Part shown: positions 1,308-56,083 of the stretch, one piece after another
Numbering within the stretch: position 1 is the stretch's first letter
How the letters are laid out: every line of letters begins with the position of its first letter
NCBI GenBank assembly: GCA_964621645.1
Contig: CAZUMH010000002.1
Span: forward strand, 8,928 to 72,927
Origin: an uncultured bacterium
GTDB taxonomy: Bacteria > Zhuqueibacterota > QNDG01 > JAGLOF01
Length of the DNA: 64,000 nucleotides
Direction: 5' to 3'
Notes under the pieces: generated by a model
Seen by the model: the letters and a program-made list of their open reading frames with translations, nothing else
The model's database searches: none
Told to the model about the DNA's origin: nothing
Translations under genes and position numbers: made by a program

Positions 1308-1358
1308 GATTACGACCTGGTGCTTTCCGGACAGCAGGAAGGAAGACCGGAGGAACAT

Positions 1359-6194: not shown

Positions 6195-6692
6195 GTGCTG
6201 GATATGGCACTGGCCAAGAAAGAAAAAAGACTATTGATAATCTGCGGAATCGTTGCCGTAGGGGCGGGGATTTATCAATTCGTCATTTATCCAGCCCAAC
6301 AGGCTAAAAAGAATCCCCTTGCGGAAAGCAAAGCGGCCGCTCAGGTTCAGCAAGCGGCGGCAGGCGTGACCGGTGAGATTACCCAAAAGGAACCGGTAAT
6401 GCCGACTCAGGCTACCATATTTGCTAATTGGGGCAGGGATCCGTTTGTGGCCGGCTCCCGTGCGGGAGAGTCAGCGTCTTCCAGCGGCGGTGGGTCATCT
6501 TCAGCTTCTAAAAAACTGGTGCTGAAGGGAATTTTCTGGAAGCAGGGCATACCACACGCTCTGATCAACGATTTCGTGTTGGCGGAGGGCGAAACTCAGG
6601 ATGGAATCCTGGTGAAAAAGATAACCGGGACGGAAGTGATTTGCCAGAGAAATAACAGGAAAATCACGCTACACTGGAGCGACAGATCATGA
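6195..6692 (+). CDS. pilP: PilP-like pilus assembly protein. Likely start is ATG 6204 after SD AAGGG; ORF-track start is GTG 6195.
   Basis: N-terminal membrane anchor (LLIICGIVAVGAGIY), Ser/Gly-rich linker, RDPF motif and C-terminal beta-domain (LKGIFWKQG...ALIND.VLAEGE); overlaps pilQ start by 4 nt. Confidence 0.5.
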   Translation: MLDMALAKKEKRLLIICGIVAVGAGIYQFVIYPAQQAKKNPLAESKAAAQVQQAAAGVTGEITQKEPVMPTQATIFANWGRDPFVAGSRAGESASSSGGGSSSASKKLVLKGIFWKQGIPHALINDFVLAEGETQDGILVKKITGTEVICQRNNRKITLHWSDRS

Positions 6693-8995
6693 ACAAGTAC
6701 AAAAAGACTTTGATAGGTATAGCGACCGCCTTTCTGCTTTGCAGCAGTACGGGATGGACGCAGTCCACACTCACTTCTATAAAGAAGGGGGGGGAGGGTG
6801 AACGAAGCTGGATTGTCCTTTCTTTCAATCAGAAGGCGATCTGGAGTGGCATCTCCCGATTGCAGGGGATGAAAGGATACGCCCTCTATTTCATGGGTAA
6901 CGCTGGTATTCTCGACGGGGAACGCCGCAGCATCAATCCGATCAACGGGCCCGATTTGCTGGTTGAGCAGGTAAGCACCGATCCGGAGGTGATGAAGGTT
7001 ACGGTGACCTGTGATGCTGCCACTCAGCTTACCGTTCTGAACAATAACCGGTACGTGGTGGTTTCCTTCAACGACGATCGATTCGTCCAATCGGCTGCAC
7101 TGCAGACCATTGAGGATGTCTCTCCTACACAGGGTGAACTGGTATCGGTTGTTCAGAGGAGCAGCAACAGCAATTTTATCGCATCTATGACGTTTAACGG
7201 ATCATATGAATGGTATGGCTTTATCCAACCGGTTTCCCACGCGGCGGCTTTGCTGATTCGTGGAGCTACCAACACAGGCCGCTCCGATATCAGTTATACA
7301 AATGCCGCTCTGCGCCGTATCCGCATCTTCAATGATGAGGGTGAACATCCCGGGCTTAAAGCAGTGCTTTTCTTTCAGGATGGAAATCCCTATACCATTG
7401 TCAAGAAGGGATCGCAGATGCTGGTGGAGACGGTGAGCCTGGGCGGTACGCCGCAGGAAAAAGTCCTACTGGCCAGCCGGGAACAATCCGGTGCGGTGAC
7501 TGTAACCCCTTCGGCGAAAATGAATGAGGAAGACTGGAAAAAGATCGATGACCTTCTTACCGGAGCACCGCCGGCAGCCAGTGCCGAGCCGGAAGCGGCA
7601 CCGCAGGAACAAAAACAGACAGAGCCCGCCATTAATCAGAGTGGTCAGGGAAAGCAGGTCGAGAAGGAGCAGCCCGCTGTCCAGGAAGAAGTAAATGAGA
7701 AACCAGTTCAGGAAAAACCCAAGGATTTTACTCCAGTAGAGGAGAAGACCAACAGAATTCCGTGGGACGAGAGAGTTACGTTCAGGTTTGATAATACAGA
7801 TTTAAATAAAGCGGTTCGAACAGTTGCAAATCTTTACAATTTGAATGTGGTTTTCTATGAGGGTCTGGAAGGAAAGGTAACCGTTGATTTACATGACGTT
7901 ACGCTGCGACAGGCTTTGGACAAGATGATCTATCCTCTCAATGCCGAGTATCTCGAAGATGACGGCATTATCATGGTCCGCCCGATGAACATGAGTTATG
8001 TTGGCGGGATGAAGACCCGGGTTTTCCGTCTGCAGTACGCCGAAGCGGAGAATGTGGCTCCCATTATCAAACAGGTAGTCAGCAATGACAGCCTTGTCCA
8101 GGTTTTTCATCCGGAATTCCTCAATGTTGAGAAAGGCGGTACCAAACGACAGGAATCGAACAAGATTACCATCCAGGGAGTGAGCCGTACCAGTGTTCTG
8201 GTGGTAACCGAGACTCCCGGCAAACTGAACGAAGTGGCGGATGTTATTAAAGAGCTGGATCGAGCTCCCGTCAAGGTGATCATCCATTCCAAACTGGTGG
8301 AGATGTCGCCCTTAAACAGCAACAAACTGGGGATCGACTGGGATAAAACCATCACCATGGCCTTGAATCAGGTGGATCAGCTGGCAGATGGAAGCAAAAT
8401 TGGCTATTCATTGCTTAATGATGCCCCAGGCAGCGGCGGGACAGTAGAGCTGGGCCACCTAACAGCCAGCAAATTTCAGGCAGTCCTTGATTTCCTGCAG
8501 GAGCGCTCCGACGTGAAACTGAAATCGAATCCCAGCCTGCTGACAAACGACAATGAAGAATCATCCATCAGTGTGGGCACCACGGTGCCGGTTCCGAAGA
8601 TCCAGAGAGGTTTCGGCGGCCAGGGAGACATGGTTACCTTTGATTATAAAGAGGTTAATATTCAGATGAATGTTACTCCTCACGTTACCGAAGATAATAA
8701 GATTACCATGTTCGTTAATCCGGTGATCGAAGAGATAACCGGGTGGGTGGAATTCCAGGGCAATCAGGCACCCATCACGGATAAGAGATCGGTAAACAGT
8801 ATCGTGACAATTAATAATGGAGAAACAGTGGTCATCGGCGGATTGGTAAAGAGTCAGCAGACACGCACCCTGAAAAAGGTCTGGTTCCTGGGCAGCCTTC
8901 CCCTGCTGGGAAAACTTTTCCAACACGAGGAGAACGAGGATAAACAGACAGATTTGATGATTTTTATCACTCCTGAAGTGGTACATGAGGGTTGA
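6689..8995 (+). CDS. pilQ: Type IV pilus secretin PilQ, with AMIN-like N-terminal domains and a Pro/Glu/Gln-rich linker
   Basis: Secretin N domain (NLNVVFYEGLEGKVTVDLHDVTLRQALDKMI) and canonical secretin C-domain (VVIGGLVKSQQTRTLKKVWFLGSLPLLGKLFQHE...DLMIFITPEVV); signal peptide. Confidence 0.85.
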   Translation: MNKYKKTLIGIATAFLLCSSTGWTQSTLTSIKKGGEGERSWIVLSFNQKAIWSGISRLQGMKGYALYFMGNAGILDGERRSINPINGPDLLVEQVSTDPEVMKVTVTCDAATQLTVLNNNRYVVVSFNDDRFVQSAALQTIEDVSPTQGELVSVVQRSSNSNFIASMTFNGSYEWYGFIQPVSHAAALLIRGATNTGRSDISYTNAALRRIRIFNDEGEHPGLKAVLFFQDGNPYTIVKKGSQMLVETVSLGGTPQEKVLLASREQSGAVTVTPSAKMNEEDWKKIDDLLTGAPPAASAEPEAAPQEQKQTEPAINQSGQGKQVEKEQPAVQEEVNEKPVQEKPKDFTPVEEKTNRIPWDERVTFRFDNTDLNKAVRTVANLYNLNVVFYEGLEGKVTVDLHDVTLRQALDKMIYPLNAEYLEDDGIIMVRPMNMSYVGGMKTRVFRLQYAEAENVAPIIKQVVSNDSLVQVFHPEFLNVEKGGTKRQESNKITIQGVSRTSVLVVTETPGKLNEVADVIKELDRAPVKVIIHSKLVEMSPLNSNKLGIDWDKTITMALNQVDQLADGSKIGYSLLNDAPGSGGTVELGHLTASKFQAVLDFLQERSDVKLKSNPSLLTNDNEESSISVGTTVPVPKIQRGFGGQGDMVTFDYKEVNIQMNVTPHVTEDNKITMFVNPVIEEITGWVEFQGNQAPITDKRSVNSIVTINNGETVVIGGLVKSQQTRTLKKVWFLGSLPLLGKLFQHEENEDKQTDLMIFITPEVVHEG

Positions 8996-8998: not shown

Positions 8999-10066
8999 AT
9001 GATAGGTCTTGAACAGATTCATCAACTGCTGACCCACGCGCAAAAACTCTCTGCTTCGGATATCCATCTGGGAGCGGGTTATCCTCCGATTGTACGGATC
9101 GACGGAAAACTGCAGCCCATCAAGGGACGCGTTCTCAGCAAGGGTGATATGGAAGATATCATTGTCCAGGTGCTGGATGATTTCCAAATGGAACGGTTCC
9201 GCAAGGACATGGAACTGGATTTTGGCTACTCCGTGGAAAACGTGGCTCATTTCCGTGTCAACGTGTTCAATAAACTAGGCGGATACGGGATGGCTTTCCG
9301 TATAATCCCTGACAAGATACGCTCCCTGGAAGAACTGGGCCTGCCGGTCACCGTGGCGGAAATGTCCCGGCGGAATGAAGGACTGGTGCTGGTCACGGGG
9401 CCCACGGGACACGGTAAATCGACAACTCTGGCGGCGATGATCGACCTGATGAACACCGAACGCCGCTCCCATATCATTACCATCGAAGATCCTATCGAAT
9501 ACACGCATAAAGCGAAAAACTGTCTTATCCAGCAGCGTGAGCTGGGGCACCATACTCATTCTTTTTCGGCCGCTTTGCGCAGCGCCCTTCGGGAAGATCC
9601 CGATGTGGTGCTGGTGGGAGAGATGCGCGATCTGGAAACAATCGCCCTGGCTTTGACGGCAGCTGAAACCGGACATCTGGTTCTCTCAACCCTGCATACC
9701 AGAAACGCTCCTGATACGGTGAACCGTATCATTGACGTATTCCCGGCTGAACAGCAGAGTCAGATCCTGGCTCAGATCTCAAGCTCACTCCTGGGAATAA
9801 TTTCACAGCGGCTGATACCGAAGGCCCGGGGAGAGGGAAGGATAGCGGCGACGGAAGTCATGGTGGTTAATCCGGCAATCCGCAATCTTATCAGGGAGCG
9901 CAAGACGCACCAAATTCTTTCCATCATGCAATCCAGCACCTCCAAGGGGATGATGTCGATGGACGATCATCTGCTGGAACTGTTGAAAAAAGGATTAATT
10001 TCCAGAGAATTAGCCCAGAAATATGCTTTGGAGCTGGAACGTTTTGTGCCGAAGACCGGCCGCTGA
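8999..10066 (+). CDS. pilT: Twitching-motility retraction ATPase PilT
   Basis: Walker A GPTGHGKSTT, Asp/His boxes, C-terminal AIRNLIRE motif; 355 aa length fits PilT rather than PilB. Confidence 0.85.
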   Translation: MIGLEQIHQLLTHAQKLSASDIHLGAGYPPIVRIDGKLQPIKGRVLSKGDMEDIIVQVLDDFQMERFRKDMELDFGYSVENVAHFRVNVFNKLGGYGMAFRIIPDKIRSLEELGLPVTVAEMSRRNEGLVLVTGPTGHGKSTTLAAMIDLMNTERRSHIITIEDPIEYTHKAKNCLIQQRELGHHTHSFSAALRSALREDPDVVLVGEMRDLETIALALTAAETGHLVLSTLHTRNAPDTVNRIIDVFPAEQQSQILAQISSSLLGIISQRLIPKARGEGRIAATEVMVVNPAIRNLIRERKTHQILSIMQSSTSKGMMSMDDHLLELLKKGLISRELAQKYALELERFVPKTGR

Positions 10067-13855: not shown

Positions 13856-13870
13856 TGGCATGGGGTTTGC
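13856..13870 (+). promoter_or_regulatory. Candidate sigma54 (-24/-12) promoter, TGGCAT-N5-TTGCG, about 110 nt upstream of the chemosensory operon
   Basis: GG and GC dinucleotides spaced exactly as in the TGGCACG-N4-TTGCW consensus; lies in a 370-bp non-coding region. Confidence 0.4.
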
Positions 13871-13981
13871 GAATAACACGGCAGAGCAAAATTGCATGAT
13901 TTTTCGGGAAATAGATTACCTTTTGTAATCATTCTATTCATTTTGAAAGTGGATCAAAATGGTGATAGAGGAGGAACAGAA

Positions 13982-14359
13982 GTGGCTTCAAAAATCCTAA
14001 TCGTTGATGACGATGCGGGGATCCGCCTTCTTTTATCCAAATTTCTCCAGCGGCAGGGATTCGAGATCATTACTGCTGAGGATGGATTGGAAGGGGTGGA
14101 GATGGCCAAGGAGCATCACCCTGATTTGGTGCTGCTGGATGTTGTCATGCCACGCATGAATGGACTGACAGCGGCGCGTCTGATCAAATTCTACAAGCCG
14201 CTTAGTGATGTACCCATCATTTTTCTCACCGCAAAAGACGCCCAGAAAGAGATCGATTTAGCTGAGGCGGCCCGGGCGGATGTTTACATCACTAAACCAT
14301 TTGATGTGCGGCAGGTTGTGGAAGTGGTCACCGAAATGCTGATGCCCTCTCCAGTCTGA
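13982..14359 (+). CDS. CheY-like single-domain response regulator (GTG start, SD GGAGGA)
   Basis: Receiver motifs ILIVDDD, the phospho-acceptor Asp in LVLLDVVMP, conserved Thr/Lys later in the domain; 126 aa from the GTG. Confidence 0.8.
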   Translation: MASKILIVDDDAGIRLLLSKFLQRQGFEIITAEDGLEGVEMAKEHHPDLVLLDVVMPRMNGLTAARLIKFYKPLSDVPIIFLTAKDAQKEIDLAEAARADVYITKPFDVRQVVEVVTEMLMPSPV

Positions 14360-14449
14360 ACCGACATTCAACAGGAGCGGTCCGGCCTGATGTCGTCCGC
14401 TTCGCTGAAAAGGCGATTCCGATTTCCAGCCTGAATTGGAGGACGGTGC

Positions 14450-14938
14450 ATGTCCGATAGAGAGAAAGTACTTCTTTTTTATGTCCAGAAACAGTGTTTT
14501 GCATTGCGGCTGCCTTTGGTCGAGCGCATTACCATGTCGGCCCAGATAACACCGCTGCCTCAGGCCCCGAAGATTGTCCTGGGAGTCATCGATGTGCAGG
14601 GGGATATTTTCCCTGTAATCGATACCAGAAAAAGATTCAGTATGAAAACCAAGAATGTGGGGATGAACGATTATTTTATCATCGGTAAAACGGGTAATCG
14701 AAAGGTTGCCCTCCTGGTCGATAATATAGGAGAGATTGAGACGGTGACCAGTGACGATATCATCGATGGCGAGGATATCCTGCCTAAGACTGGTCCTGTG
14801 GAAGGAGCCTTAAAATTGCGCGGAGATATTATTTTCATTCACGATCTGGAAAAGTGCCTGTCACTGAATGAGGAACGGCAGCTCAGCCGAGCCTTGAAAA
14901 AATCGAATCTCACAACCGGAACGAAAGAACAAAAATGA
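14450..14938 (+). CDS. cheW: CheW-like coupling protein
   Basis: Single CheW domain (GVIDVQGDIFPVIDTRKRF...VALLVDNIGEI). Confidence 0.8.
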   Translation: MSDREKVLLFYVQKQCFALRLPLVERITMSAQITPLPQAPKIVLGVIDVQGDIFPVIDTRKRFSMKTKNVGMNDYFIIGKTGNRKVALLVDNIGEIETVTSDDIIDGEDILPKTGPVEGALKLRGDIIFIHDLEKCLSLNEERQLSRALKKSNLTTGTKEQK

Positions 14939-16431
14939 GTAACCACGTTCATAGCACCGTTATCGATCAGCTTAGTGAGCACTTAAGTAAACATATGGGC
15001 CTTTACTTCCAGAAAGAACGACGTCTGGACTTGCTGCGGGGGATTCGGGAGGCGTCGGAAGTATTCGGCTTTCAGGATGTTGAGACATTTATTCACTGGA
15101 TCATGTCCACCGAGTTGAATCAGCGTCAAGTAGAAGTTTTGGCCCGTTTCCTGACCGTCGGCGAAACCTATTTTATGAGGGAGAAGAGAGTTTTTGAGGC
15201 TTTGGATAGTCAAATCATCCCTGATCTCTTGCGGGAACGCAGGATGAAAGAAAGCTCTATTAACATCTGGAGCGCCGGATGCTGTACCGGTGAGGAGCCT
15301 TACTCGGTGGCGATCATGCTTGATCAGCTCATCCCGGATATTCAGGCGTGGAACATCTCAATCCTCGGGACGGATATCAATCCCTTATTTCTGCAGAAAG
15401 CGAATCGCGGCATTTATACTGAATGGTCCTTCAGGGGGACACCGGCCAGCATCAGGGAGAGATATTTCAAGAAGGTCGGGAGCCGGGAATTCATGATCAT
15501 TGATCGAATAAAACAGATGATCCACTTTTCCTATCTTAATTTGGCCAAAGATCCGTTCCGTACCAGCGGCATCGGCCCGGAACCGATGGATATCATCTTC
15601 TGCCGCAATGTTCTCATGTATTTCAAACCGGATCGCGTTGAAGAGATCGTCAATAAATTCTATGACGTCCTCAATGAGGACGGCTGGCTTATCGTGGGCC
15701 CCAGTGAATCGGCTCATATATATTTCTCGAAATATGAGAGCGTGGAGTTCCCGGGAGCGATTCTCTTCCGCAAGAGCCTTAAACCGAAGAATAAACCCGA
15801 GAAAATTATCAGGCGCCAGAAGAAAAAGGCCATCTACCATACTCTGCCCACAGTCAAGAAAAAGGTTGCCAGGCCCGCGCTGAAGCCCGCTCTCCGTGCT
15901 GAACCGGAGAAAACCAAATCAGAAAAGAAACAGGTTTTCAGTCAGGCATTGCAATATTACCGTGAGAAAAAATATCAAGCTGTTGCGGAGGCGGTGGAAC
16001 AATTCCTCACCATAAGCACCAATCCGGATATAAGAATGATGCTGCTTCTGTCCAAGGCGTATGCCAACCTGGGGCGCCTGGAACAGGCGATGAACTGGTG
16101 CACCAAAGCCATTAACCATGACAAACTGAATCCTCGCTGCTATCATCTGCAAGGGTCTCTTTTCCAGGAACAGGACCGACTGGAAGAGGCCGCGCAATCG
16201 TATCAGAGAGTCCTCTATCTAAATCCCGATTATCCCATGGCTCATTTCATGCTGGGGAATGTATGCAGGCAGCAGGGGAAGGTACGTGAATCCAATAAAT
16301 ATTTCAGCAATGTACTCTCGCTTTTAAACGCTCAGGATAAAGACTCCCTGTTACCGGATGCGGAAGGCATTACGGTAGGAGGGATGCTTGAATGCATTAA
16401 ATCGATGATGAATGGAGAATATCAGGGATGA
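14935..16431 (+). CDS. cheR: CheR-type MCP methyltransferase fused to C-terminal TPR repeats
   Basis: CheR N-terminal helical domain, SAM-binding core (IWSAGCCTGEEPYSVAIML, ILGTDIN), then TPR repeats of about 130 aa. Confidence 0.85.
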   Translation: MSNHVHSTVIDQLSEHLSKHMGLYFQKERRLDLLRGIREASEVFGFQDVETFIHWIMSTELNQRQVEVLARFLTVGETYFMREKRVFEALDSQIIPDLLRERRMKESSINIWSAGCCTGEEPYSVAIMLDQLIPDIQAWNISILGTDINPLFLQKANRGIYTEWSFRGTPASIRERYFKKVGSREFMIIDRIKQMIHFSYLNLAKDPFRTSGIGPEPMDIIFCRNVLMYFKPDRVEEIVNKFYDVLNEDGWLIVGPSESAHIYFSKYESVEFPGAILFRKSLKPKNKPEKIIRRQKKKAIYHTLPTVKKKVARPALKPALRAEPEKTKSEKKQVFSQALQYYREKKYQAVAEAVEQFLTISTNPDIRMMLLLSKAYANLGRLEQAMNWCTKAINHDKLNPRCYHLQGSLFQEQDRLEEAAQSYQRVLYLNPDYPMAHFMLGNVCRQQGKVRESNKYFSNVLSLLNAQDKDSLLPDAEGITVGGMLECIKSMMNGEYQG

Positions 16432-17021
16432 AGGGAAAAGAGAGCAAGACGAAGAAAAAAGACAGCGGTCTGCTCGAAAATTTGCGGGACACCCTTGCCG
16501 TAAATCAGGAAGATGAAGAAAAGCTGCTGGAGCAGCGGGCCAAGGAGCTGGCCGAAGTTCGCAAAGACGAGGATATCGATGAAGATTCTTTAAGTGTGAT
16601 CCAATTTGACCTCGCTTATGAACGCTACGGTATTGAATCGTGCTGGGTACGGGAAGTCTATCCCCTAAAGGAACTCACTCCGGTACCTTGCACTCCAGAT
16701 TTCATTCTCGGTATAACCAGCATCCGCGGACAGATCATATCAATTATGGATCTGAAGCGTTTTTTCGATCTTCCCACCAAAGGTCTGACGGATCTTAATC
16801 GGGTCCTGGTATTGAGAAATGATGAGATGATTTTCGGCATTCTGGCCGATTCAATCTACGGAGTGAGGAGTGTGCGGGAGGATGACCTGTTGGATCGTCC
16901 GGCAGCCGGTGGAAAGATCAGCAATGATTATATAATGGGTGTCACGGAAGATCAGCTGATTGTGCTGGACGGCAGAAAGATATTAAGCGATCAGAAGATT
17001 TTAATCTATGACGAGGGATAA
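16428..17021 (+). CDS. Second CheW-like coupling protein
   Basis: CheW domain (ILGITSIRGQIISIMDLKRFF...VLVLRNDEMIFGILADSI). Confidence 0.75.
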   Translation: MKGKESKTKKKDSGLLENLRDTLAVNQEDEEKLLEQRAKELAEVRKDEDIDEDSLSVIQFDLAYERYGIESCWVREVYPLKELTPVPCTPDFILGITSIRGQIISIMDLKRFFDLPTKGLTDLNRVLVLRNDEMIFGILADSIYGVRSVREDDLLDRPAAGGKISNDYIMGVTEDQLIVLDGRKILSDQKILIYDEG

Positions 17022-17040
17022 ATTGTACAGGGAGAGTACA

Positions 17041-18639
17041 ATGAGCAAGTTTTTCACCATGAAGCTGAAAATTATCATCCTGCCTGCTTTGGCGTCTATT
17101 CTGCTCTTGACCGTGCTGTGCGTCGAATGCGTCTATATGAAGAAGAGCCGGAATCTGTCCGAAAAGGCGATATCCACTCATCTTCCAGCCTGGGAGACGG
17201 GAATCAATATGCGCAACACCCTGGTGAGTTTTCATCATAGTATTGGACAGGCCGTGCTTGACGGGAAACAGAGTGACCTGACGAACGTCCAGACCCAGCT
17301 GGACCACTTTCTGGCTCTGATTGACGATGCCCAAAAAAGGTCACTGATCCCGGCTGAAGAACTCGATCCCATCAGGAAAAACTTCAATAATTATTACAAA
17401 TTATATCAGGATGCCGGATTGGGCCAGCCTGGAAAACATATTTCTGTCCAGGCAAGCATGGCAGAATCATCCTACAACGCAACGTATGATGCCATTGAAA
17501 CTGCTATTACTCAAAGCAACGCCACTCTTTCCTCTGGTCTTACACATCTTGACCAAACCTCGGATTCCATGGGTGACGCGCTGACATGGCTCATAATCAT
17601 CGCTATTGTTATCTTATTCGGCTTTACATACAATATCGTCCAGTCTGTCACAAGGCCAATTAAAAAACTGGCAAAAATCACCTCCCGAATCGCCGAAGGT
17701 GATCTATTGGTGGAAGTGGAACGGTCGGATGGCAGGGATGAATTGGCGGAATTAATCAACGGCTTCAATATCATGGTAGAGAATCTGCATGTTTTAACCC
17801 AGGAAGTCAAGGATGGTACCCAAGGGCTTGCCGCAGCGGCGGGACAGATCTCCGCTTCGGTCACCGAGATTTCTTCCGCTGCCGCCGAGACGGCTTCAGC
17901 GGCGAGTCAGACGAGCACTACGGTTGAGGAAGTGAGGCAGACGGCTCTTGATTCCAACCGCAAGGCGAAGATGGTCTCGGAAAACGCTCATGAGGCTGTG
18001 GAGATATCTCAAACCGGCGAGGATGCGGTTAACCTGAGCATAGAAGGAATGCACCGGATTGAGGAACAGATGGAATCCATTGCCGGCAGCATTATGAAAC
18101 TCAGTGAACATGGACAAGCCATCGGGGACATCATAGCCACTGTGGAAGACATTGCCGAGCAATCACGTCTCCTGGCGGTCAACGCATCCATTGAAGCGGT
18201 GAAGGCCGGGGAACACGGAAAGGGCTTCTCGGTGGTGGCTCAGGAAGTACAAAATCTGGCGGAACAGTCAAAAGAATCCACGGCACGGGTGCGGTCCATT
18301 CTGGACGACATCCAGAAAGCGACCAGTGAAGCTGTTATGAAAACGGAACAGGGGTCAAAGGCGGTTAAGGCCGGAGTAAAGCAATCCCAGGAATCGGGGG
18401 AAGCCATCGCCAGACTGGCTGAGAGCGTGGAACAGGCGGCTCAGGCGACAACCCAGATTTCCGTATCCAGCCAGGAGCAGGTGGTGGGCATGGATCAGGT
18501 GGTTTCGGCCATGGAGAGCATTAAAACAGCCAGCGCCCAGCATGTGGATGCCACCAGGCAGGTGGAACTGGCCGCGCAGGAGCTGCATAAGCTCGGCCAG
18601 CGTTTGTCAGAATTGATGAACCGATATCAGTTAAATTAA
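17041..18639 (+). CDS. Methyl-accepting chemotaxis protein (TM - sensor - TM - HAMP - MA domain)
   Basis: Two TM helices, HAMP (PIKKLAKITSRIAEGDL...), and a methyl-accepting signalling domain with the conserved hairpin region (EQSRLLAVNASIEAVKAGEHGKGFSVVAQEV). Confidence 0.85.
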   Translation: MSKFFTMKLKIIILPALASILLLTVLCVECVYMKKSRNLSEKAISTHLPAWETGINMRNTLVSFHHSIGQAVLDGKQSDLTNVQTQLDHFLALIDDAQKRSLIPAEELDPIRKNFNNYYKLYQDAGLGQPGKHISVQASMAESSYNATYDAIETAITQSNATLSSGLTHLDQTSDSMGDALTWLIIIAIVILFGFTYNIVQSVTRPIKKLAKITSRIAEGDLLVEVERSDGRDELAELINGFNIMVENLHVLTQEVKDGTQGLAAAAGQISASVTEISSAAAETASAASQTSTTVEEVRQTALDSNRKAKMVSENAHEAVEISQTGEDAVNLSIEGMHRIEEQMESIAGSIMKLSEHGQAIGDIIATVEDIAEQSRLLAVNASIEAVKAGEHGKGFSVVAQEVQNLAEQSKESTARVRSILDDIQKATSEAVMKTEQGSKAVKAGVKQSQESGEAIARLAESVEQAAQATTQISVSSQEQVVGMDQVVSAMESIKTASAQHVDATRQVELAAQELHKLGQRLSELMNRYQLN

Positions 18640-18653
18640 GGTGGGAGTGGATA

Positions 18654-19070
18654 ATGAATATTCAGGATCCCGAATTTTTTAAGGAACTGGTGGCCATGTT
18701 CAAGATAGAAACCACTGAACATGTTGAGGCCATTCAGGATGGGTTGGATAAGCTGAAGGGAGATCTGTCCGGATCGGAAAATCAGGATGTACTGGAAGTC
18801 GTTTTCAGAGCCGCCCACAGCTTGAAAGGAGCCGCCCGCACGGTAGGACTGATCGATATAGAATCCATCGGCCAGGAACTGGAACGATTGCTTGCACAGG
18901 TGAAAAACGGAAAACTGGAGCTGGATCAGCGCAAGGTGGTGCTTTTCAAGGAAGTAACCAGTGAATTGCAGGTGATGATACAGTCACTTACCGACGATGG
19001 CAAGATAACGGGTGATTCATCTCAACTTCTGCGCAGGCTGGAACTGGTGGAGCAGGAGAAGGCTCAGTAA
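18654..19070 (+). CDS. Stand-alone Hpt (CheA-P1-like histidine phosphotransfer) protein, paralogous to the CheA N-terminus
   Basis: FRAAHSLKGAARTVGL matches the CheA P1 His motif; about 45% identical in register to residues 1-130 of the downstream CheA. Confidence 0.7.
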   Translation: MNIQDPEFFKELVAMFKIETTEHVEAIQDGLDKLKGDLSGSENQDVLEVVFRAAHSLKGAARTVGLIDIESIGQELERLLAQVKNGKLELDQRKVVLFKEVTSELQVMIQSLTDDGKITGDSSQLLRRLELVEQEKAQ

Positions 19071-19106
19071 TCCGGTACCCTGGCAAAATGAGGACGGAGC
19101 TTTTTC

Positions 19107-21461
19107 ATGAATACAAATGAAGACGGATTCCTAAAGGAACTGCTTGCCATGTTCAAGATCGAGGCCGAGGAACACATCAAGGCCATTACTCTCGGTCTCT
19201 TGGAACTTGAGAAAGCGGAGGACGTCAGCCGTTGTAAAACGGTTCTTGAAACGATCTACCGGGAAGCGCACAGCCTGAAAGGCGCGGCTCGGGCGGTGAA
19301 TCTTCAGGAAGTTGAGTCTCTTTGCCAGACATTGGAAAGCGTGTTTGCCCTGATTAAACGGCAGGAACTGGCGCTGAATCATGAACTCTTCGATGTACTG
19401 CACAACGCCGTAGACGGCGTGGAAACGCTGGTGGAGAAGGGGAAGCTGCCGCAATTGGGTGAACTCATGAGCAAACTCACCAGCATAGAAGAAGGCCGTC
19501 CCGCAACCTCTGTGAAACCATCTGCGCCGGTACCCGAGAAAGTGGAAGTCAAAGAGGCTGAGAAATCAAAATCTGCTGCAGCGGCAGTTGAACCATCGGT
19601 ACCGGAAAAGGCGGTTCCTGAAGAGACTAAACCAGCCGAACCGGCTCCGGAAGTCGCGGAGCCGTCCACGGAGGCACCAGATACTCCTTTGCCTACGGTG
19701 GAATTTTCAGATACAATTCGTCTTCCTGTCTCAAAATTAGATTCTATTCTTCTCCAGGCTGAGGAGATGCTGGGAGCCAAACTGGCTGCCGATCAATATG
19801 TGAATGATCTAAGAGGACTTTCATCTTTCCTTTCCTTGTGGAACCGTGAGCTGGAGAAGGAACGTTTGCACGCTTCTGCTGCTTTTCGTCAAACGGAAAG
19901 GGAAATCGATGACGGAAGGGATATTTCGCAGCTGGTGGGCTGGAACCAGGAACAGGTGAAGTCTTTAGAACTGCGCCTGAGCATGATGAGCAAAAACGCC
20001 GAAAACAACTCCAGGCTTCTGGATGGTATGATCAACAGCCTGCTGGAGGATATGAAACAGATTCTCATGCTGCCGTTTTCCACTCTTCTTAAAATGATGC
20101 CGAAGATCGTACGAGATCTCTCCAGGGACCAGCGCAAGGAAGTACAGCTCATTTCAAAGGGCAGCACCGTAGAGGTGGACCGCCGTATCCTGGAAGAGAT
20201 GAAGGATCCGCTCATCCATCTGTTCCGGAATTGCATCGACCACGGCTTGGAGAAACCGGACGAGCGCCGGAAAAAAGGAAAGGATCCAACCGGGACCCTT
20301 TCCATTGTAGTCAGTCAGAAAAGCGGTGACAAGGTACTGATTGAGGTCAATGACGATGGTCACGGTATTGATGCGGACGTGATTAAAAAAACGGCGATTA
20401 AGCGGGGCGTGATTACCAAGGCCATAGCGGCTGATATGAGTGAAGCGGAGGCTCTGCAGCTGATCTTTCAGTCCGATTTCTCCACCAGCCCCATCATTAC
20501 CGATATTTCCGGTAGAGGATTGGGAATGGCCATAGTGCGGGAGAAAGTGGAAAAACTCGGCGGTACCCTGACCATTGAAACAAAAGTCGGTGAAGGGACG
20601 TCGTTCAGCATGCTTCTCCCGGTGACCGTGGCTACGTTCAGGGGCATTCTGGTGAAATCCTCCGGTTTCAGTTTTGTCATTCCCACTCATCAGGTGGAAT
20701 CAACGCTGCGGATCAGGAGGGACAGTATTAAGACAGTTGAAAATCGCGAGACGCTTATGCTGGGGGGGCAGGCCATTTCTCTTCTTCCCCTTTCAGATGT
20801 TTTGGAGCTGCCAAAACTTAAGAAAGAAAAGGAAAAGAGTGATTATGTCCAGGTGATGATTATCAGCGCAAACGACGAGCAGGTCGGTTTTTACGTCGAT
20901 AAGGTAATGAAAGAACAGGAAGTGCTGGTAAAAGGACTGGGTAACCAGCTCCAGAGGGTTCGTAATATTGCCGGTGCAACGATTCTTGGTGACGGCAGGG
21001 TGGTAACTATCTTGAATGCAGCGGATCTTATAAAGTCCGCCCTAAAGGTAAAAGTCGTTTCTGGTCGGAGAACCGGAGCGCGGGAGGAGACTGTGGAACA
21101 GAAATCAATATTGATTGCGGAAGACTCAATAACGTCACGTACCTTGCTGAAGAACATTCTCACCACAGCAGGATACAATGTAACCGCGACTGTGGACGGC
21201 ATGGAGGCCTATACCACTCTGCGGGAAGGAGCATTCGATTTGGTTGTTTCGGACGTGGAAATGCCCCGAATGAACGGTTTCGATCTGGTGTCAAAGATTC
21301 GCCATGAAGAAAAGACTTTGGAACTGCCGGTTATTCTGGTTACAGGCCTTGAATCCAGGGAAGACCGGGAACGGGGTATCGAGGTCGGGGCCAATGCCTA
21401 TATCGTGAAACGCAGTTTTGATCAAAGCAATCTGCTTGAAGTAATTAAAAAACTTATCTAA
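19107..21461 (+). CDS. cheA: Hybrid CheA histidine kinase with a C-terminal receiver (P1-linker-P3-P4-P5-REC)
   Basis: Hpt His in REAHSLKGAAR, Pro/Glu-rich linker, extended dimerisation region, N-box HLFRNCIDHGLE, G-boxes (GRGLGMAIV), CheW-like P5, C-terminal REC (ILIAEDS...DLVVSDVEMP). Confidence 0.9.
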   Translation: MNTNEDGFLKELLAMFKIEAEEHIKAITLGLLELEKAEDVSRCKTVLETIYREAHSLKGAARAVNLQEVESLCQTLESVFALIKRQELALNHELFDVLHNAVDGVETLVEKGKLPQLGELMSKLTSIEEGRPATSVKPSAPVPEKVEVKEAEKSKSAAAAVEPSVPEKAVPEETKPAEPAPEVAEPSTEAPDTPLPTVEFSDTIRLPVSKLDSILLQAEEMLGAKLAADQYVNDLRGLSSFLSLWNRELEKERLHASAAFRQTEREIDDGRDISQLVGWNQEQVKSLELRLSMMSKNAENNSRLLDGMINSLLEDMKQILMLPFSTLLKMMPKIVRDLSRDQRKEVQLISKGSTVEVDRRILEEMKDPLIHLFRNCIDHGLEKPDERRKKGKDPTGTLSIVVSQKSGDKVLIEVNDDGHGIDADVIKKTAIKRGVITKAIAADMSEAEALQLIFQSDFSTSPIITDISGRGLGMAIVREKVEKLGGTLTIETKVGEGTSFSMLLPVTVATFRGILVKSSGFSFVIPTHQVESTLRIRRDSIKTVENRETLMLGGQAISLLPLSDVLELPKLKKEKEKSDYVQVMIISANDEQVGFYVDKVMKEQEVLVKGLGNQLQRVRNIAGATILGDGRVVTILNAADLIKSALKVKVVSGRRTGAREETVEQKSILIAEDSITSRTLLKNILTTAGYNVTATVDGMEAYTTLREGAFDLVVSDVEMPRMNGFDLVSKIRHEEKTLELPVILVTGLESREDRERGIEVGANAYIVKRSFDQSNLLEVIKKLI

Positions 21462-21480
21462 TGGGAGATCGGGCTCTCGC

Positions 21481-22560
21481 ATGATCAAAGTACTTATTAC
21501 AGATGATTCACCGGTTGTCAGGGGATACTTAAAATACATCCTTAGTTCCGATAAAGATATACAGGTCATCGGAGAAGCCAGGAATGGCAAGGAGGCGGTG
21601 GAACGGGTACAGGAAGAAAAACCGGATGTAGTCACCATGGATATCCATATGCCGCAGATGGATGGATTTGAGGCTACTCGCAGGATCATGGAAACCAATC
21701 CCGTCCCCATTGTCATCTGCAGTGCCAGCTGGAATCCGGAAGAAGTCGACAAGACGTTCCGGACCATGGAGGCGGGCGCCGTGGCGGCTCTGGAGAAACC
21801 ACGGGGCATGGGACATCCCGATTCCGATTCTTCCGTAAAGACGCTCCTGCGCACTGTAAAAGCAATGGCCGATGTCAAGGTGGTGCGGCGCTGGTCCAAG
21901 AAGAAACGTGAACAGCATCCACCCAGGCCGGTGTCACCGTCGCCTCAACCGGCTCGGCAGGTGAGCCGGACAGTCGTACCCGCGGTATTGCCGTCTAAAG
22001 GGATTCAGGTCGTCGCAATCGGGGCTTCCACCGGGGGACCCATGGCCCTGCAAACGATCCTTTCCGGACTGCCAGCGGATTTCAAGGTTCCGGTGCTCAT
22101 TGTGCAGCATATCGCTCCCGGGTTTCTGGCCGGTCTGGGCAGCTGGCTCACGACCAGCACCGGATATCAGGTGGTAGTGCCTGAGGATGGAGAAGCCATG
22201 ATTCCGGGTACGGCCTATCTCGCTCCCGATGATTTCCAGCTGGGTGTACGCGGAGAGCATAAGATTCTTCTGCGCCAGGATCCTCCGGAAAACAATCTCC
22301 GGCCGGCTGTTTCGTATCTGTTCCGCAGCGTGGCCGAAAAATATGGAAAAAACTCATTAGGCGTTCTGCTTACCGGGATGGGTAAAGACGGCGCCGCTGA
22401 GCTTAAGCAGATAGCCGATGCCGGAGGCATAACCATTGCCCAGGACAAAGCTACTTCCATTGTGCACGGCATGCCCGGAGAGGCAATTCGTCTGGGTGCA
22501 GCGACCCATGTCGAGTCAATTCAGAATATTTCGGAAAAGTTGAAAACATTAGTTAATTGA
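21481..22560 (+). CDS. cheB: CheB protein-glutamate methylesterase (REC + CheB catalytic domain)
   Basis: N-terminal receiver (VLITDDS...[10 protein letters not shown]), then the methylesterase core (GASTGGP...[10 protein letters not shown]...GMGKDGA). Confidence 0.9.
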
Positions 22561-22570
22561 GGATACGGAA

Positions 22571-25500
22571 ATGGAAGCTTTTAAAAGCAGCCCCGTCCGA
22601 CATATTGAGATTTTGGTTGTGGAGGACAGCCCCACTCAGGCAATGCATCTGAAACACATCCTTATGAAAGCGGGGTATGAAGTTACGGTACAACGCAACG
22701 GTAAGGATGCCCTGAGCTACATGCGGGAGCATAAGCCGACCATCGTGATAAGCGATATTCTGATGCCGGAGATGGACGGATATGAACTTTGCCGTCAGAT
22801 CAGGGCGGATGCCAATCTTCAGTATATTCCGGTGATTTTGCTCACCCAACTTTTCGATCCCCGTGATGTAATCCGCGGGCTTCTGAGCGGTGCTGATAAC
22901 TTCGTCACCAAACCCTACAGTGATCAATTTCTCATATCACGTATCCAGTACATCCTGGCGAACCAGGAACTCAGACAGAACTCCATAACAGAGATGGGCA
23001 TAGAGATTATTTTCGCTGGTCAGAAGCATTTCATCACCTCTGACCGTATGCAGATTCTCGACCTGCTTTTCTCTACTTTTGAGAATGCGGTGCAGCGGAA
23101 CCAGGAACTGGAAGCGGCCAATAAGAAATTGCGCAAGGCATTGGAAACAATTGAAACCATCAATGATGTCTCACAGAAACTGAACCGCATGCTGACCCCC
23201 CAGGATGTCGCTAAGGCTATCACTGTGGGAGTGAAAAGACTCATTGATTATGACAATTGTGTAGTCTACCAGATCGATGAGGAAGGCAAGTTTCTCGTTC
23301 CGCTGTTCCGGGGAAAAGGAACCAGCCAGGAAAAGGGTGTCATTAAAAAGGTGAAAGTAGGTGAAGGGATCCCCGGCTGGGTGTATGCCCAGGGCAAGCC
23401 CGAGCTGGTCGTCGACGTTGCCAAGCACCCCAAATCGAATTATAAGAGCGGTGTCATTCCGCCGGATGAATCAATGCTGGCCGTTCCCATGCAGTATGAG
23501 GATATGACCACAGGAATTATCCTTCTTAGCAAATCTGGGCTGCATCAATTTACCGAAGAGCATATGCGTACTCTGACAATCCTGGCAGGACAGGCGGCTG
23601 TGGCCATCGAGAATGGACGTCTGCTGCAGGAAGAGAGACGGAGGACCAGACAGCTCTCCCTGATCAATGAGATTTCCAAGAAAGCGGTGTCCACTCTCGA
23701 AATGGTGCAGCTGGGGCGTCTGGTGGTGGATTCTATCAGTAATGAATTTGATGACACGCACGTAATGCTGTTCTTGAACGACGATTCCAAGGAGGAACTG
23801 TTCCTGCAGGCGCAACAGGGACCGCTGGCAAAGAAGATCCCCGATCATAGCCGTCTCCCGGTGAATAAACGGGCCAAGGGTAAATCAACTGCCTGGAGTG
23901 AAGCGGTACTTGCCAAGAATAGTAAACAACTTGATATCGGTTTGAATGTCGACGGAGTTGAATCCCTTCTCAGTATCCCCGTGAAAAAAGGTGACAAGCT
24001 GCTTGGAGTACTCATCATGATGAGTACACGCTCGGGCAAATTCGATGAGAAAGATCAGTCCATGATAAAGATGCTCGCCGATCAGATCGCTATGTCGATT
24101 GAGAACGCCCGCCTCTATGAGAGTGAAAAGAGCAGCAAGGAACTGGCGCAGGGCGCCAACCGGGCCAAGAGTGAATTTCTGGCTAACATGAGCCATGAAA
24201 TCCGTACCCCTATGAATTCCATCATTGGTTTCTCGGATCTTCTTCTGCAGGAGAACCTGCCGGAAGAACTGGGAGATTTCGTGCGAACCATCAAGTTGAA
24301 CGGCGAGAGCCTCCTTGAGATCATCAACCAGATACTCGATTTGGCCAAGGTGGAGACCGGCCGTATGGATATGGAGCAGATAGAATTCGATCTTCAGGAT
24401 CAAGTCGAGAGGGTTGTTCAGCTCCTGCGTCCCCGAGTGCTTGATAAAGGTTTGACGTTTGAGGTCAAGAGCGATCCTCATTCACTGCCCCTGGTGGAGG
24501 GTGACAGCTTGAAGATTCGTCAGGTCATGGTAAACCTGCTGGGGAACGCGGTGAAATTTACCGAAGAGGGCAGCATTTGTCTCAATGTTTCGATTGGTAA
24601 AAAGGATAAGCAGGATATGCTTACGGTCATGGTCGTCGATACCGGTATCGGTATTCATCAGGAGAAACTGTCGGCTATATTCGATTCATTCACTCAGGCG
24701 GATAGTTCCATGACCCGCCGTTTCGGCGGTACCGGATTAGGGCTGGCCATCAGCAAGCAGATGGTTGAGTTGATGGGTGGTCAGATCTGGGTGGAATCTG
24801 AACTCGGCCACGGCAGCACCTTCGGCTTCACCGTTCCGATAAAGACTCTTGTATCCAACACTGAGCCGGTCCAGAAAAAGAAAGGGAAAACGGGGGCTAA
24901 GACCGCCAAACAGTCCGCGAAACCGAAACAGAAGACCGAAATGAAGCGGGAGACGGATAAGGAGGCAAAGAATCCTTCTGTCCTGCTGATCGAAGACAAC
25001 GGCGGTGCCATGGATCTGCTGCGCCGTTATCTGGAACGGGATGGGTATAACGTTGAGTGCAGCACCACCGGCGAAGACGGCCTCATGAAAGCAAAATTCT
25101 ATCGCCCCGATGCCATCATCCTTGAGATTCTTTTACCGGGCAAGATGGATGGCTGGGAGGTGCTCAGAAATCTCAAGTCCGGTCAGCTGACCAGAGATAT
25201 TCCCGTCATTGTCTGTTCGGTGCTTTCCAACCCGAAAAAAGCCTTCAGTCTGGGAGCGGTTGAGTATATCGAGAAGCCGGCTCAGGAAGCTGAATTGCTG
25301 CAGACACTGCATAACAGTGTCGGTATACCTGACAGCAAGGGCAAAGAGGTGGTGGTCGTGGACGACGATCCCACCGTCCTGAACCTGTTCGAGAAGATGT
25401 TCAATCGGCAGAATGTTCCTGTGCGTACTTTCAGTGACGGGAACAAAGTCCTCGATTATCTGAAAGAAGGCAAAAAAGTCGGATTGGTCATCCTCGATCT

Positions 25501-26479
25501 TCTCATGCCGGAAGTGGATGGATTCGAGGTTCTCAACAAGATAAAATCCTCCGAGAAGACACGGGATATTCCCGTTGTCATCTATACGGGTAAGAAACTG
25601 ACCTCCAAGGACCGTTCCCGGTTGAGTCACGATTATGAACTTATCCTGCAGAAGACGGAAGAGACCCCCGAAACACTGTTGAAACAGCTGAAGGAACTCG
25701 TCACGGCTGGCAAGATTAAACGGGCCATCGAGAAGAAGGCACCCCAGAAAGTCGGCAGCAAGAGACTGCTCCTGGCCGAGGATGATCCCTCCGGACAGAA
25801 GCTTATGCGGCATCTGCTGGCCCAGCTGGGCTACACCGCTGATGTGGCCGGTACCGGACAGGAGGTACTCAATCTGCTCGAGAAAAATGAATACGGTCTT
25901 GTTTTAATGGACATGGAAATGCCGGTGATGGATGGATTTACAGCCACACGCAAAATACGCATGATGAAAAAATACGAGGATTTGACCATTATCGCGCTTA
26001 CGGCCCATGCCATGAAGGAACATCGCCAGAAGACGCTGGAGGCCGGGTGTACCGATTATGCTTCCAAACCAGTAAGCAGGCAAGTCCTGAGTGAGCTGTT
26101 GACCAAGTATCTGGGGCCGGTGGAGGTAGAGCAGGTCGCTGACGAAAAAGTATCCCAAAAGGTCGAGACAGTGTCAACCCAGCCGTGCGAAGAGGATGAT
26201 GATCCGCTCATGAAGGAGCTGACCGAATTCTTTGTCAGCGATCTGGGACGCAAGATGGTGCAGTTCGAAAAGGATCTGGTGGAGCAAAATCAGGATGAGG
26301 TAACCCGTTTTGGCCATTCACTCAAGGGTACGGCCGGATCCTATGGTTTCAAGCAATTCTCCGTCTGGGGTGGAGAAATCGAGAAAGCGGCCCAAGTAGG
26401 GGAGTGGCAGAAAATAAAAGAGCTTCAAGCCAAGTTGAAAGAAGAGTTTTCAAAGTTGGAGTACAATAATGACGCCTGA
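22571..26479 (+). CDS. Multidomain hybrid sensor kinase: REC-GAF-GAF-HisKA-HATPase-REC-REC-REC-Hpt
   Basis: N-terminal REC (ILVVEDS..ISDILMP), two GAF-like modules, H-box [12 protein letters not shown]-box GTGLGLAIS, three further receivers ([24 protein letters not shown]...LMDMEMP) and a C-terminal Hpt ([14 protein letters not shown]). Confidence 0.85.
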
Positions 26480-27536
26480 ACACATGACAATATTGACGGT
26501 TGATGACACGCCGGCTAATATCCGTCTGCTAACCCATTACCTGCATAAACAGGGCTATCGGGTGATAACCGCCGAAGACGGTTTTGAAGGATTTAAAGCC
26601 GCAATCAAGCACAAGCCGGATCTCATCCTGCTGGATGTCATGATGCCCGGTACCGACGGCTACGAAGTCTGTGAACTGCTGAAGACAGAGGAAGAGACAA
26701 GGGATATACCGGTTGTCTTTCTCACAGCCAAAGCGGAAGTGGAAGATCGCATCCGCGGGTTCGAAATGGGCGCGATGGATTATATCACCAAACCGTTTAA
26801 TCTCACTGAAATAGCCACGCGGGTACAAACACAGCTGGAATTATGTTACCTGAAACAACAAAACCGCCGCTACAGCGCCGCTTTTGATCAGTCCAGTTCT
26901 CTGCTTTCCATGGGGATACTGGCTCAGAGACTTTTACAGCAGGCCGACCGGGAACTGGATGAGCTCAGTAAAAAGGTCGGATCTAGTGACAAGGATCTTG
27001 ATAAAACCCTGAAACAGGTTAATGTGACAACGAAGTCCTGTCGAACCCTGCATAACAGGATGAGCAGCATTGCCCAGGCTACCAAGAGAACGCCCCTTTC
27101 GGTACTTTTAAACGACGCCGTGGATCTGGTTCAATACCGTTTGGGGGATGATCTACCGCTGCGCTTCGAAAAACCGGATTCCGATATGCTGGTGTTCAGC
27201 CATCCCGGACTCAGCATGCACGGGCTGTCGGAACTGATGATTTTTGGCTTTACCTTGGCGGAAGAGACCGATTTGATCGAAGTAAGCCATGGAGAGAAGG
27301 AAGAAAATCAAGAGGGTTCCTTCGTCCCCATCTTCATTCGGACCGAAGGCAGGATCGAGGCCGTGGTTCCGGAGATCACCGAGATAGATACTGTCCTGAC
27401 CGACCTGAACGGAAACGACGCCACTTACGCTCTTACGGCCGCCATTCTGGCTCTGCGGGCGGCGGGAAGCGGAGTTGATTCTTCTTTCAAAAATGGGGAA
27501 TTGCTCTTCAAGGTTTTTCTGCCGGTTGCCAACTAG
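26469..27536 (+). CDS. Response regulator: N-terminal REC fused to an about 230-aa C-terminal domain resembling a degenerate histidine-kinase module with no catalytic His
   Basis: REC motifs ([18 protein letters not shown] and K present); the C-terminus has a DHp-like helix ([15 protein letters not shown], no His) and a GHKL-like alpha/beta tail. Confidence 0.7.
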
Positions 27537-56079: not shown

Positions 56080-56083
56080 GAGG

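Follow-up and report, generated by a model that had tools for sequence, protein, structure and literature searches.

A chemosensory operon with a receiver-bearing hybrid histidine kinase as its probable output in an uncultured Zhuqueibacterota bacterium

To characterize a cluster of chemosensory (che) genes in an uncultured bacterium of the GTDB lineage Zhuqueibacterota, we analysed a 64,000-nucleotide stretch of its DNA (GenBank assembly GCA_964621645.1, contig CAZUMH010000002.1; hereafter the window). The open reading frame (ORF) table, Pfam and NCBIfam together place ten genes on the forward strand between positions 13982 and 27536 (Table 1). In order, they encode a CheY-like response regulator, a CheW protein, a CheR with a C-terminal TPR region, a second CheW, a transmembrane methyl-accepting chemotaxis protein (MCP), a stand-alone histidine phosphotransfer (Hpt) protein, a CheA with a C-terminal receiver (REC) domain, CheB, a hybrid histidine kinase, and a protein that joins a REC to a tail resembling a degenerate kinase. 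An initial annotation, made from the letters alone, had described this ten-gene operon, and the family searches bear out every gene, the order and the strand, with domain architectures that match those it had given. The genes are tightly packed, with overlaps of 4-14 nt at some junctions and no gap above 90 nt; the gap between cheB and the hybrid kinase gene is 10 nt, and the latter overlaps the tail gene by 11 nt. The next gene downstream, of HlyD type, starts 575 nt past the operon.

Family scans covered almost every non-overlapping ORF of 150 aa or more in the window. No flagellar family was matched among them, in keeping with the lack of flagellar context that had been noted initially, and CheC, CheD, CheX, CheZ and CheV were matched neither in the operon nor in the other scanned ORFs. 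A scan of the window for sigma-70 promoters and terminators gave nothing usable, with terminator-like sites at chance level, and it placed no terminator-like site on the forward strand between the operon genes. The CheY-like gene begins with GTG behind a GGAGGA ribosome-binding site, and its product keeps D12, D13, D57, T87 and K109 in an alignment to E. coli CheY. The MCP, encoded between cheW2 and hpt, has two transmembrane helices (hydrophobic segments at residues 20-44 and 190-213) around a periplasmic domain of ~145 aa that lacks a family match. Its signalling domain comprises 40 heptads, with a 141-aa arm on each side of the hairpin-tip residue Glu402.

Table 1. Features of the che operon and its upstream region. 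Positions refer to the window, except in the last row, where they refer to the related loci.
Feature	Position	Strand	Evidence or remark
Secretin gene	6689-8995		precedes pilT
PilT/PilU-family ATPase gene	8999-10066		NCBIfam TIGR01420, 474.7 bits (cut-off 319.1)
Sigma-54-type promoter candidate TGGCATGGGGTTTGCG (-24 GG / -12 GC)	13856-13871	+	TGGCAY-N5-TTGC match
CheY-like single-domain response regulator, 125 aa	13982-14359	+	Pfam Response_reg 7.7e-28
CheW 1	14450-14938	+	Pfam CheW 2.2e-26
CheR with C-terminal TPR	14935-16431	+	Pfam CheR 1.5e-51, aa 77-261; TPR families, aa 343-450
CheW 2	16428-17021	+	Pfam CheW 1.9e-26
Transmembrane MCP	17008-18639	+	Pfam HAMP and MCPsignal
Stand-alone Hpt	18654-19070	+	Pfam Hpt 1.2e-16
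CheA-REC hybrid kinase	19107-21461	+	Pfam Hpt, HATPase_c, CheW, Response_reg
CheB (REC and catalytic domain)	21481-22560	+	Pfam CheB_methylest 2.1e-58; NCBIfam CheB 347 bits (cut-off 293)
Hybrid histidine kinase, 1302 aa	22571-26479	+	Pfam REC-GAF-GAF-HisKA-HATPase_c-REC-REC-REC-Hpt
REC1 (aa 14-125) and ~70-aa extension (aa 126-195) of hybrid kinase	22610-23155	+	conserved after cheB
~70-aa extension of hybrid kinase, aa 126-195	22946-23155	+	without Pfam model
REC2 pseudo-receiver of hybrid kinase	24980-25330	+	Glu at CheY position 57
REC3 and REC4 of hybrid kinase	25349-26125	+	acid pocket, Asp57, Thr87, Lys109 canonical
C-terminal Hpt of hybrid kinase	26219-26458	+	Pfam Hpt, aa 1217-1296, 1.9e-06, above gathering score; HSLKGTAG
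REC-pseudo-histidine-kinase, 355 aa, last operon gene	26469-27536	+	REC by Pfam; tail by model
Sigma-54-type motif in related loci	L001 4758; L007 4719; L009 4512; L011 5109; L013 4543; L022 4971		

The ten-gene arrangement is conserved among the nearest relatives. The closest CheA homologs (53-62% identity) belong to uncultured 'bacterium' metagenome-assembled genomes (MAGs) from Zodletone and to candidate division KSB1. Annotated gene calls give an identical cluster in loci L001, L003, L007 and L009, and tblastn recovers the same order in L011, L013, L015 and L022, with the contained parts present on the incomplete contigs L012, L014 and L037. The four annotated loci share the blocks upstream, a secretin with PilT followed by a thioredoxin system; since their downstream flanks all differ, the conserved block ends after the tail gene. 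At 44-50% identity, the CheA clade extends in a scan of species-representative genomes to Desulfobacterota-type MAGs, Nitrospirota, Acidobacteriota, Verrucomicrobiota, Planctomycetota, Spirochaetota, Betaproteobacteria, a Desulfotomaculum isolate and Methanoperedens/ANME archaea. This wider scan supplied 72 of the 89 loci fetched, some duplicates among them, and the usual order in the wider loci, by tblastn, is CheW, CheR-TPR, CheW, MCP, CheA-REC, CheB.

The hybrid kinase that follows cheB comprises REC1, a conserved extension, two GAF domains, HisKA, HATPase_c, a pseudo-receiver (REC2), REC3, REC4 and a C-terminal Hpt. Its H-box reads SHEIRTP, and the N, G1 and G2 boxes are readable in the translation. 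We aligned all eight receiver domains of the operon to E. coli CheY: seven keep the acid pocket, the phospho-acceptor Asp, Thr/Ser87 and Lys109, among them REC1 of the hybrid kinase, in which the equivalent of D57 is present together with T87 and K109. The glutamate-bearing REC2 motif, IILEILLPG, is kept in L001 and L003, whereas a Binatia homolog has Asp, and REC2 is thus a lineage-specific pseudo-receiver. The HisKA/CA core, REC1, REC3, REC4 and C-terminal Hpt of this kinase all have intact motifs, as have the MCP, both CheW proteins, CheR-TPR, CheB, CheA-REC and both CheA-type Hpt domains (catalytic or phospho-acceptor residues); the degenerate parts of the operon are REC2 and the tail of the last protein.

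It is the N-terminal part of the kinase, REC1 with its extension, that recurs beside the che genes elsewhere. Of the 82 fetched loci with a cheB match, 67 carry immediately after it a gene that encodes a REC with this extension (31-95% identity). Used alone as a query, the extension matches 1205 representative proteins (E<=0.001), and in almost all of them the match falls at residues ~118-200, after an N-terminal REC. What follows it varies widely: among 56 complete REC-extension outputs, a domain scan gave HATPase_c in 42, HisKA in 40, GGDEF in 6, EAL in 5, HD in 2 and Hpt in 6. Examples include REC-GAF-PAS-HK-REC-Hpt in Methylobacter, REC-PAS-HK with three receivers and an Hpt in Binatia, REC-HK in Geobacteraceae and Syntrophus, and REC-PAS-GAF-GAF-GGDEF-EAL in Sulfuriferula and Sideroxydans. 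Two isolates among the hits, Sulfuriferula sp. GW1 and Desulfotomaculum sp. 1211_IL3151, have outputs of the GGDEF type. The extension keeps a fixed position whether the output is a kinase, GGDEF/EAL, HD-GYP or a Cys-motif domain. No Pfam family covers the segment in the window protein or in the 56 homologous outputs; PDE8A_N, considered as its family, was rejected as it overlaps receiver domains instead. The extension is modelled as a β-hairpin of low confidence (pLDDT 55-64) and a long helix, and a Foldseek search with the REC1-extension model returned receivers only (best, Syntrophus 3gt7 at 49% identity) and nothing for the extension. Judged from their distribution among these sequences, REC1 and its extension form the input module that characterizes this chemosensory clade. 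The post-receiver extension seems not to have been described before, on a literature check that was not thorough.

Many stand-alone response regulators of ~250 aa (for example P0261, P0264 and P0289 of P0243-P0360) also share the REC and extension. They end in PICxxCKKIRDDxGxWxxxExYIxxHSxAxF(S/T)HGxCPxC, a segment with no Pfam match whose Cys and His residues give it the look of a small metal-binding output domain. Two further sets of loci in the clade depart from the window in other respects. The archaeal Methanoperedens/ANME-2 MAGs (L008, L016, L020, L025) carry the same che cluster, at a CheA identity of 49-50% and with a cytoplasmic PAS-MCP; they also encode REC-extension kinases, of which L016 has as many as three in succession. 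These loci suggest that the whole che module was transferred between domains of life. In a Candidatus Binatia MAG, a REC-MshEN-T2SSE ATPase of 753 aa (L005 4524-6785) stands directly upstream of the che cluster, with two further Hpt-bearing hybrid kinases upstream and no MCP gene between cheW2 and cheA. This REC-T2SSE ATPase is unrelated to the PilT neighbourhood of the window.

The CheA of the operon comprises P1 (an Hpt domain), a linker rich in Pro, Glu and Ala, the P3 hairpin, P4, the CheW-like P5 and a REC that keeps D57, T87 and K109 of E. coli CheY. The linker, at residues ~125-200, stands where P2 would be in CheA, a domain that is absent from more than half of CheAs (Berry et al. 2023, PMC10782961). 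P3 spans 117 aa, from the start motif IRLPVSKLD at 204 to the end motif MLPFSTLL at 321. In T. maritima CheA, the motif-to-motif span is ~56 aa. The alignment to T. maritima CheA structures (E 1e-67) starts at query residue 312, which corresponds to residue 54 of the 1b3q chain, and an entry at this point is consistent with a longer P3 here. By these motifs, the extra ~60 aa of CheA lie inside the P3 helical hairpin, a layout kept in 12 of 12 aligned homologs (50-64% identity). The initial annotation had instead placed an unusually long insert, of ~150 aa, between P3 and the N-box; that insert was misplaced and too large, and corresponds to the ~60 aa by which P3 is longer. Nor is the length unusual, as extended P3 domains are already documented: extended dimerization domains of CheA can be as long as 170 aa, and HMMER often overlooks them (PMC10782961).

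The stand-alone Hpt shares 48% identity over 92 aa with P1 of the adjacent CheA and carries an HSLKGAA motif; on this similarity, it is a paralog of P1. In a 1015-aa CheA homolog from Binatia, two such Hpt domains are fused in tandem. An artefactual frameshift in a two-Hpt CheA could in principle account for the separate gene, an idea that we rejected: Hpt is a separate ORF of 138-143 aa in all KSB1-type loci, and its recurrence in independent assemblies argues against an assembly error. Separately encoded Hpt genes are already known, and multiple Hpt domains with a C-terminal REC on CheA are found mostly in the alternative cellular function (ACF) and type IV pilus (Tfp) classes of chemosensory systems (PMC10782961).

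The last gene of the operon encodes a REC followed by a 230-aa tail with no Pfam match, and a PDB sequence search matched only the REC part. In an AlphaFold model of the protein (pLDDT 79.7), the REC is followed by a long helix, a hairpin like that of DHp and an α/β domain resembling CA. By Foldseek, the best match is LvrB (8vc9), aligned over the full length from REC through signalling helix and DHp to CA at E 1.9e-17, followed by HK853, RetS and ZraS at ~1e-8. The alignment showed no conserved His in the helices (residues 126-215), and the N-box Asn and the G1 and G2 boxes were not found. As modelled, the tail is a degenerate kinase, in line with the pseudo-kinase tail proposed initially; several relatives still match HATPase_c in Pfam, and the window protein does not. 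In LvrB of Leptospira, REC phosphorylation frees the CA domains (PMC13269768). With its missing phospho-acceptor His and ATP-binding motifs, and with an identity to LvrB of 17-18%, the last protein cannot work as LvrB does. The 1302-aa kinase shares with LvrB the principle of a HisKA kinase under the control of an N-terminal REC. Constraint differs sharply along the REC-pseudokinase family: against 17 homologs, mean identity is 85% in the REC and 18% in the tail, an extreme contrast within one protein.

A candidate sigma-54-type promoter lies 126 nt ahead of the CheY-like start. TGGCATGGGGTTTGCG is the sole TGGCAY-N5-TTGC match on both strands of the 64-kb window, where 0.27 would be expected by chance, and in each of six related loci (~22 kb) the motif is again the sole match, 117-148 nt before the CheY gene. 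Its conservation supports transcription of the operon as a single unit, probably dependent on an enhancer-binding activator; no gene for such an activator lies in the window.

From these features we propose that the locus is an ACF-type chemosensory pathway with a receiver-controlled hybrid histidine kinase as its cognate output, a reading to which we assign a probability of roughly 70%. The class is assigned from gene content and domain traits, after the criteria of PMC3447774 and PMC10782961. An MCP, CheA and two CheW proteins are encoded together, CheR is fused to a C-terminal TPR region, the cluster contains a multidomain REC output, and CheC, CheD, CheX, CheZ and CheV are missing from the operon and the scanned ORFs. 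CheA has a C-terminal REC, lacks P2 and has a second Hpt as a neighbouring paralog, traits that the Tfp class shares. Gene content, intact motifs and conserved linkage are directly supported. The initial annotation had already seen here a non-flagellar, ACF-type module, and CheR-TPR, CheA-REC, the two CheW and two Hpt proteins and the missing CheC/D/X/Z/V uphold that view. It had further suggested a phosphorelay as output in place of a GGDEF or motor protein; the position of the hybrid kinase gene next to cheB, a linkage conserved in 67 of 82 loci, agrees with this. Its description of the relay as novel does not hold, as REC-kinase outputs have been published (PMC3447774) and transfer from CheA3 to CheS3 has been tested (PMC3868531).

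Comparison with known systems places the operon among pathways of this kind. CheR-TPR genes occur mainly in ACF-type clusters with multidomain REC outputs; ~40% of the response regulators in such clusters carry HisKA-HATPase, and REC phosphorylation has been proposed to modulate the autokinase (Munoz-Martinez et al. 2012, PMC3447774). The operon resembles these clusters in its CheR-TPR and its multidomain REC output, and some of them likewise add PAS or GAF domains, RECs and Hpt: the survey table lists REC-PAS/PAC-HisK-HATPase-REC-HPT in Polaromonas sp. JS666 and REC-GAF-GAF-GGDEF-EAL in Nitrosospira (PMC3447774). Polaromonas, Sideroxydans and related betaproteobacterial MAGs fall in the CheA clade with such outputs. 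Relative to the surveyed clusters, the window lineage adds a second GAF, three C-terminal receivers (one of them a pseudo-receiver), the split-off Hpt and the REC-pseudokinase, and the post-REC extension is not described in the 2012 survey (PMC3447774). A survey of che genes in Geobacter notes cheAY fusions and a cluster termed 'Frz-like', and a kinase output is not described there. A literature search on KSB1 yielded no relevant work.

The Che3 system of R. centenum provides a tested precedent. Phosphate from CheA3 goes to its own REC, a sink, and to REC1 of CheS3; REC1 phosphorylation switches CheS3 off, and CheS3, not CheA3, phosphorylates CheY3 (PMC3868531). Compared by published architecture, Che3 shares with the operon a CheY, two CheW proteins, CheR, one MCP, CheB, a CheA-REC and a second kinase with a phosphorylatable N-terminal REC, and both second kinases contain a degenerate receiver. 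However, CheS3 is a REC-pseudoREC-PAS-HWE kinase without C-terminal receivers or Hpt, whereas the core here is HisKA (PF00512) with HATPase_c, and the stand-alone Hpt and REC-pseudokinase are extra in the window. The gene order also differs, cheA3 being the last gene of Che3.

Two Pseudomonas systems show partial likeness. Wsp (WspA-F, WspR) has a CheR-TPR (WspC), two CheW-like proteins, CheA-REC, CheB and a multidomain REC output after cheB; its output, however, is REC-GGDEF, whereas GGDEF occurs in only 6 of the 56 clade outputs, and Wsp lacks a second Hpt. The MCP gene, wspA, comes first in the wsp order. Pil-Chp of P. aeruginosa resembles the operon in the multiple Hpt domains and C-terminal REC of ChpA, in its single-domain CheY-like proteins and in a genomic link to pili, but only two CheA-type Hpt domains occur here, together with a CheR-TPR and a REC-kinase output that speak for ACF. 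Against this background, the features specific to the window lineage are the split Hpt, the pseudo-receiver, the two further receivers and Hpt on the kinase, the REC-pseudokinase and the sigma-54 promoter.

All phosphotransfer steps in the scheme that we propose are drawn by analogy with these precedents. The transmembrane 40-heptad MCP would sense a periplasmic cue and control CheA through the two CheW proteins, with CheR-TPR and CheB adapting the receptor. CheA would phosphorylate its own P1 His, and the CheA REC would otherwise act as a sink; the stand-alone Hpt may be loaded by CheA directly or by reverse transfer via the CheA REC. Either P1 or Hpt would then phosphorylate REC1 of the 1302-aa kinase, which, as in CheS3 and LvrB, could switch the autokinase on or off through the helix leaving REC1, while the two GAF domains would add intracellular input. 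Within the kinase, phosphate would pass from His to an Asp in REC4, or perhaps REC3, and on to the His of the C-terminal Hpt, which may in turn phosphorylate the REC of the REC-pseudokinase, the CheY-like protein or both. The pseudokinase would most likely act through contact with other proteins; it might, for example, pair with another kinase or titrate it. As the controlled process, gene regulation or a lifestyle switch appears more likely than direct control of a motor.

Some points weigh against this reading or parts of it. The pairing of receivers with Hpt domains in the relay is a guess. The sign of control by phosphorylated REC1 is opposite in the two precedents, so that either sign is conceivable here. 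Lastly, the exact sigma-54 motif was not found in two of the related loci, L003 and L015.

A bolder proposal, which we hold tentatively and consider doubtful as a whole, gives the extension a role of its own. The extension would be an undescribed, class-specific module that marks the cognate receiver of this P2-less CheA clade, for instance as a docking or dimer-switch element for CheA target specificity, and in the KSB1-like lineage the last element of the relay would be a fast-evolving REC-pseudokinase with another kinase, or the pilus-like machine encoded nearby, under its control.

Other readings of the operon fit the data less well. The locus could be a Tfp-class, Pil-Chp-like system that steers the neighbouring pilus-like machine, with the CheY-like protein acting on PilT/PilB in the manner of PilG/PilH and the hybrid kinase as an accessory. 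The initial annotation had placed pilT 3.9 kb upstream of the che genes and suggested sensory control of pili; the distance is confirmed, with a PilT/PilU-family match well above its cut-off and a secretin gene before it, and the order of pil, redox and che blocks is kept in L001, L007, L009 and L011 despite CheA identities of 53-62%. The MCP belongs to the 40-heptad class, which PilJ-type receptors also use. The REC-MshEN-T2SSE ATPase gene directly upstream of the che genes in Binatia would also suit a Tfp role, and the pair of Hpt domains, the C-terminal CheA REC and the long P3 also count as Tfp traits (PMC10782961). Yet the link is confined, among the examined loci, to the KSB1-like lineage: in ~70 loci of other phyla, a search reaching 10 kb from the che cluster gave no homolog of PilT or of a secretin, and the constant companion of cheB is a REC-extension output and not a pil gene. 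Even in the window, genes for thioredoxin reductase, an ArsR regulator, thioredoxin, OsmC and a nitrilase-family protein, along with the separate sigma-54 promoter, stand between pilT and the che operon. Moreover, CheR-TPR and multidomain REC outputs mark ACF clusters, Tfp systems having mostly single-domain regulators (PMC3447774); one CheY-like gene is present here, but the output conserved across the clade is the multidomain REC protein. The pilus link is weak, and we regard a Tfp-class system as unlikely.

The direction of signalling might also be reversed, with the GAF-driven hybrid kinase as primary sensor and the Che module draining or gating phosphoryl groups through Hpt and the CheA REC sink. 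The kinase does have its own GAF domains and a complete His-Asp-His relay, and the CheA REC with the extra Hpt would offer a route for reverse flow. There are precedents for such behaviour, in that M. xanthus Che3 acts as a phosphatase on CrdA (cited in PMC3868531) and the ChpA REC has been described as a sink or source for Hpt domains (PMC10782961). The phosphorylatable N-terminal REC1 and the clade-wide occurrence of its extension after cheB argue instead that REC1 is the acceptor for CheA, and the tested R. centenum layout shows forward transfer from CheA3 to REC1, which makes a reversed arrangement distinctly improbable.

It is very unlikely that the hybrid kinase and the REC-pseudokinase form an unrelated two-component pair beside a self-contained Che operon. 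Hybrid kinases are very numerous in such genomes, and L001 has two more directly downstream, so that a chance neighbour is conceivable; against this stand the tight junctions of cheB, kinase and tail genes, the missing terminator-like site between them, and the REC-extension gene that follows cheB in many phyla and in archaea whatever the flanks. Least likely is a flagellar chemotaxis system with its flagellar genes elsewhere in the genome, for which one could cite the single-domain CheY-like protein encoded first in the operon and the 64-kb span of the window, and which is opposed by the negative scans for flagellar and CheZ/C/X/D/V families, by the non-flagellar character of CheR-TPR, CheA-REC, two Hpt domains and a missing P2 (PMC3447774, PMC10782961), and by the finding that most strains combining CheR-TPR clusters with single-domain regulators have no flagellar genes (PMC3447774).

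Taken as an ACF-type pathway with a kinase output, the operon would be a complete example of its class from an uncultured phylum, ending in a full His-Asp-His-Asp relay. It opens no new category: given the published REC-kinase outputs and the tested R. centenum cascade, the principle of wiring a chemosensory module to a phosphorelay is already known, and it has been tested in one organism. What the comparison adds is that a REC-plus-extension output after cheB is the rule for this CheA clade across many bacterial phyla and methane-oxidizing archaea. The rule should be useful for picking phosphotransfer targets and for annotation, where such che genes in MAGs are not to be taken as markers of chemotaxis or motility.

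Elsewhere in the window, the pilus-like cluster upstream contains a gene for a 1347-aa protein with eight or nine Big_1/Invasin_D3 Ig-like repeats (1320-5363, forward strand), flanked by a weak PilO-like gene (729-1307) and a weak T2SS-M-like gene (6195-6692); a protein of this kind is unusual in a cluster that encodes type IV pilus or secretion assembly. On the reverse strand, a run of genes at 49107-53830 encodes a histone-deacetylase-family protein (599 aa), two D-Ala-D-Ala-ligase-like ATP-grasp proteins and a lysine-2,3-aminomutase-like radical SAM protein, and may represent a small-molecule or modified-amino-acid pathway. The start of an ordinary dcw cluster, with MraW, a penicillin-binding protein with a PASTA domain, three Mur ligases and MraY, occupies 54997-63822 on the forward strand.

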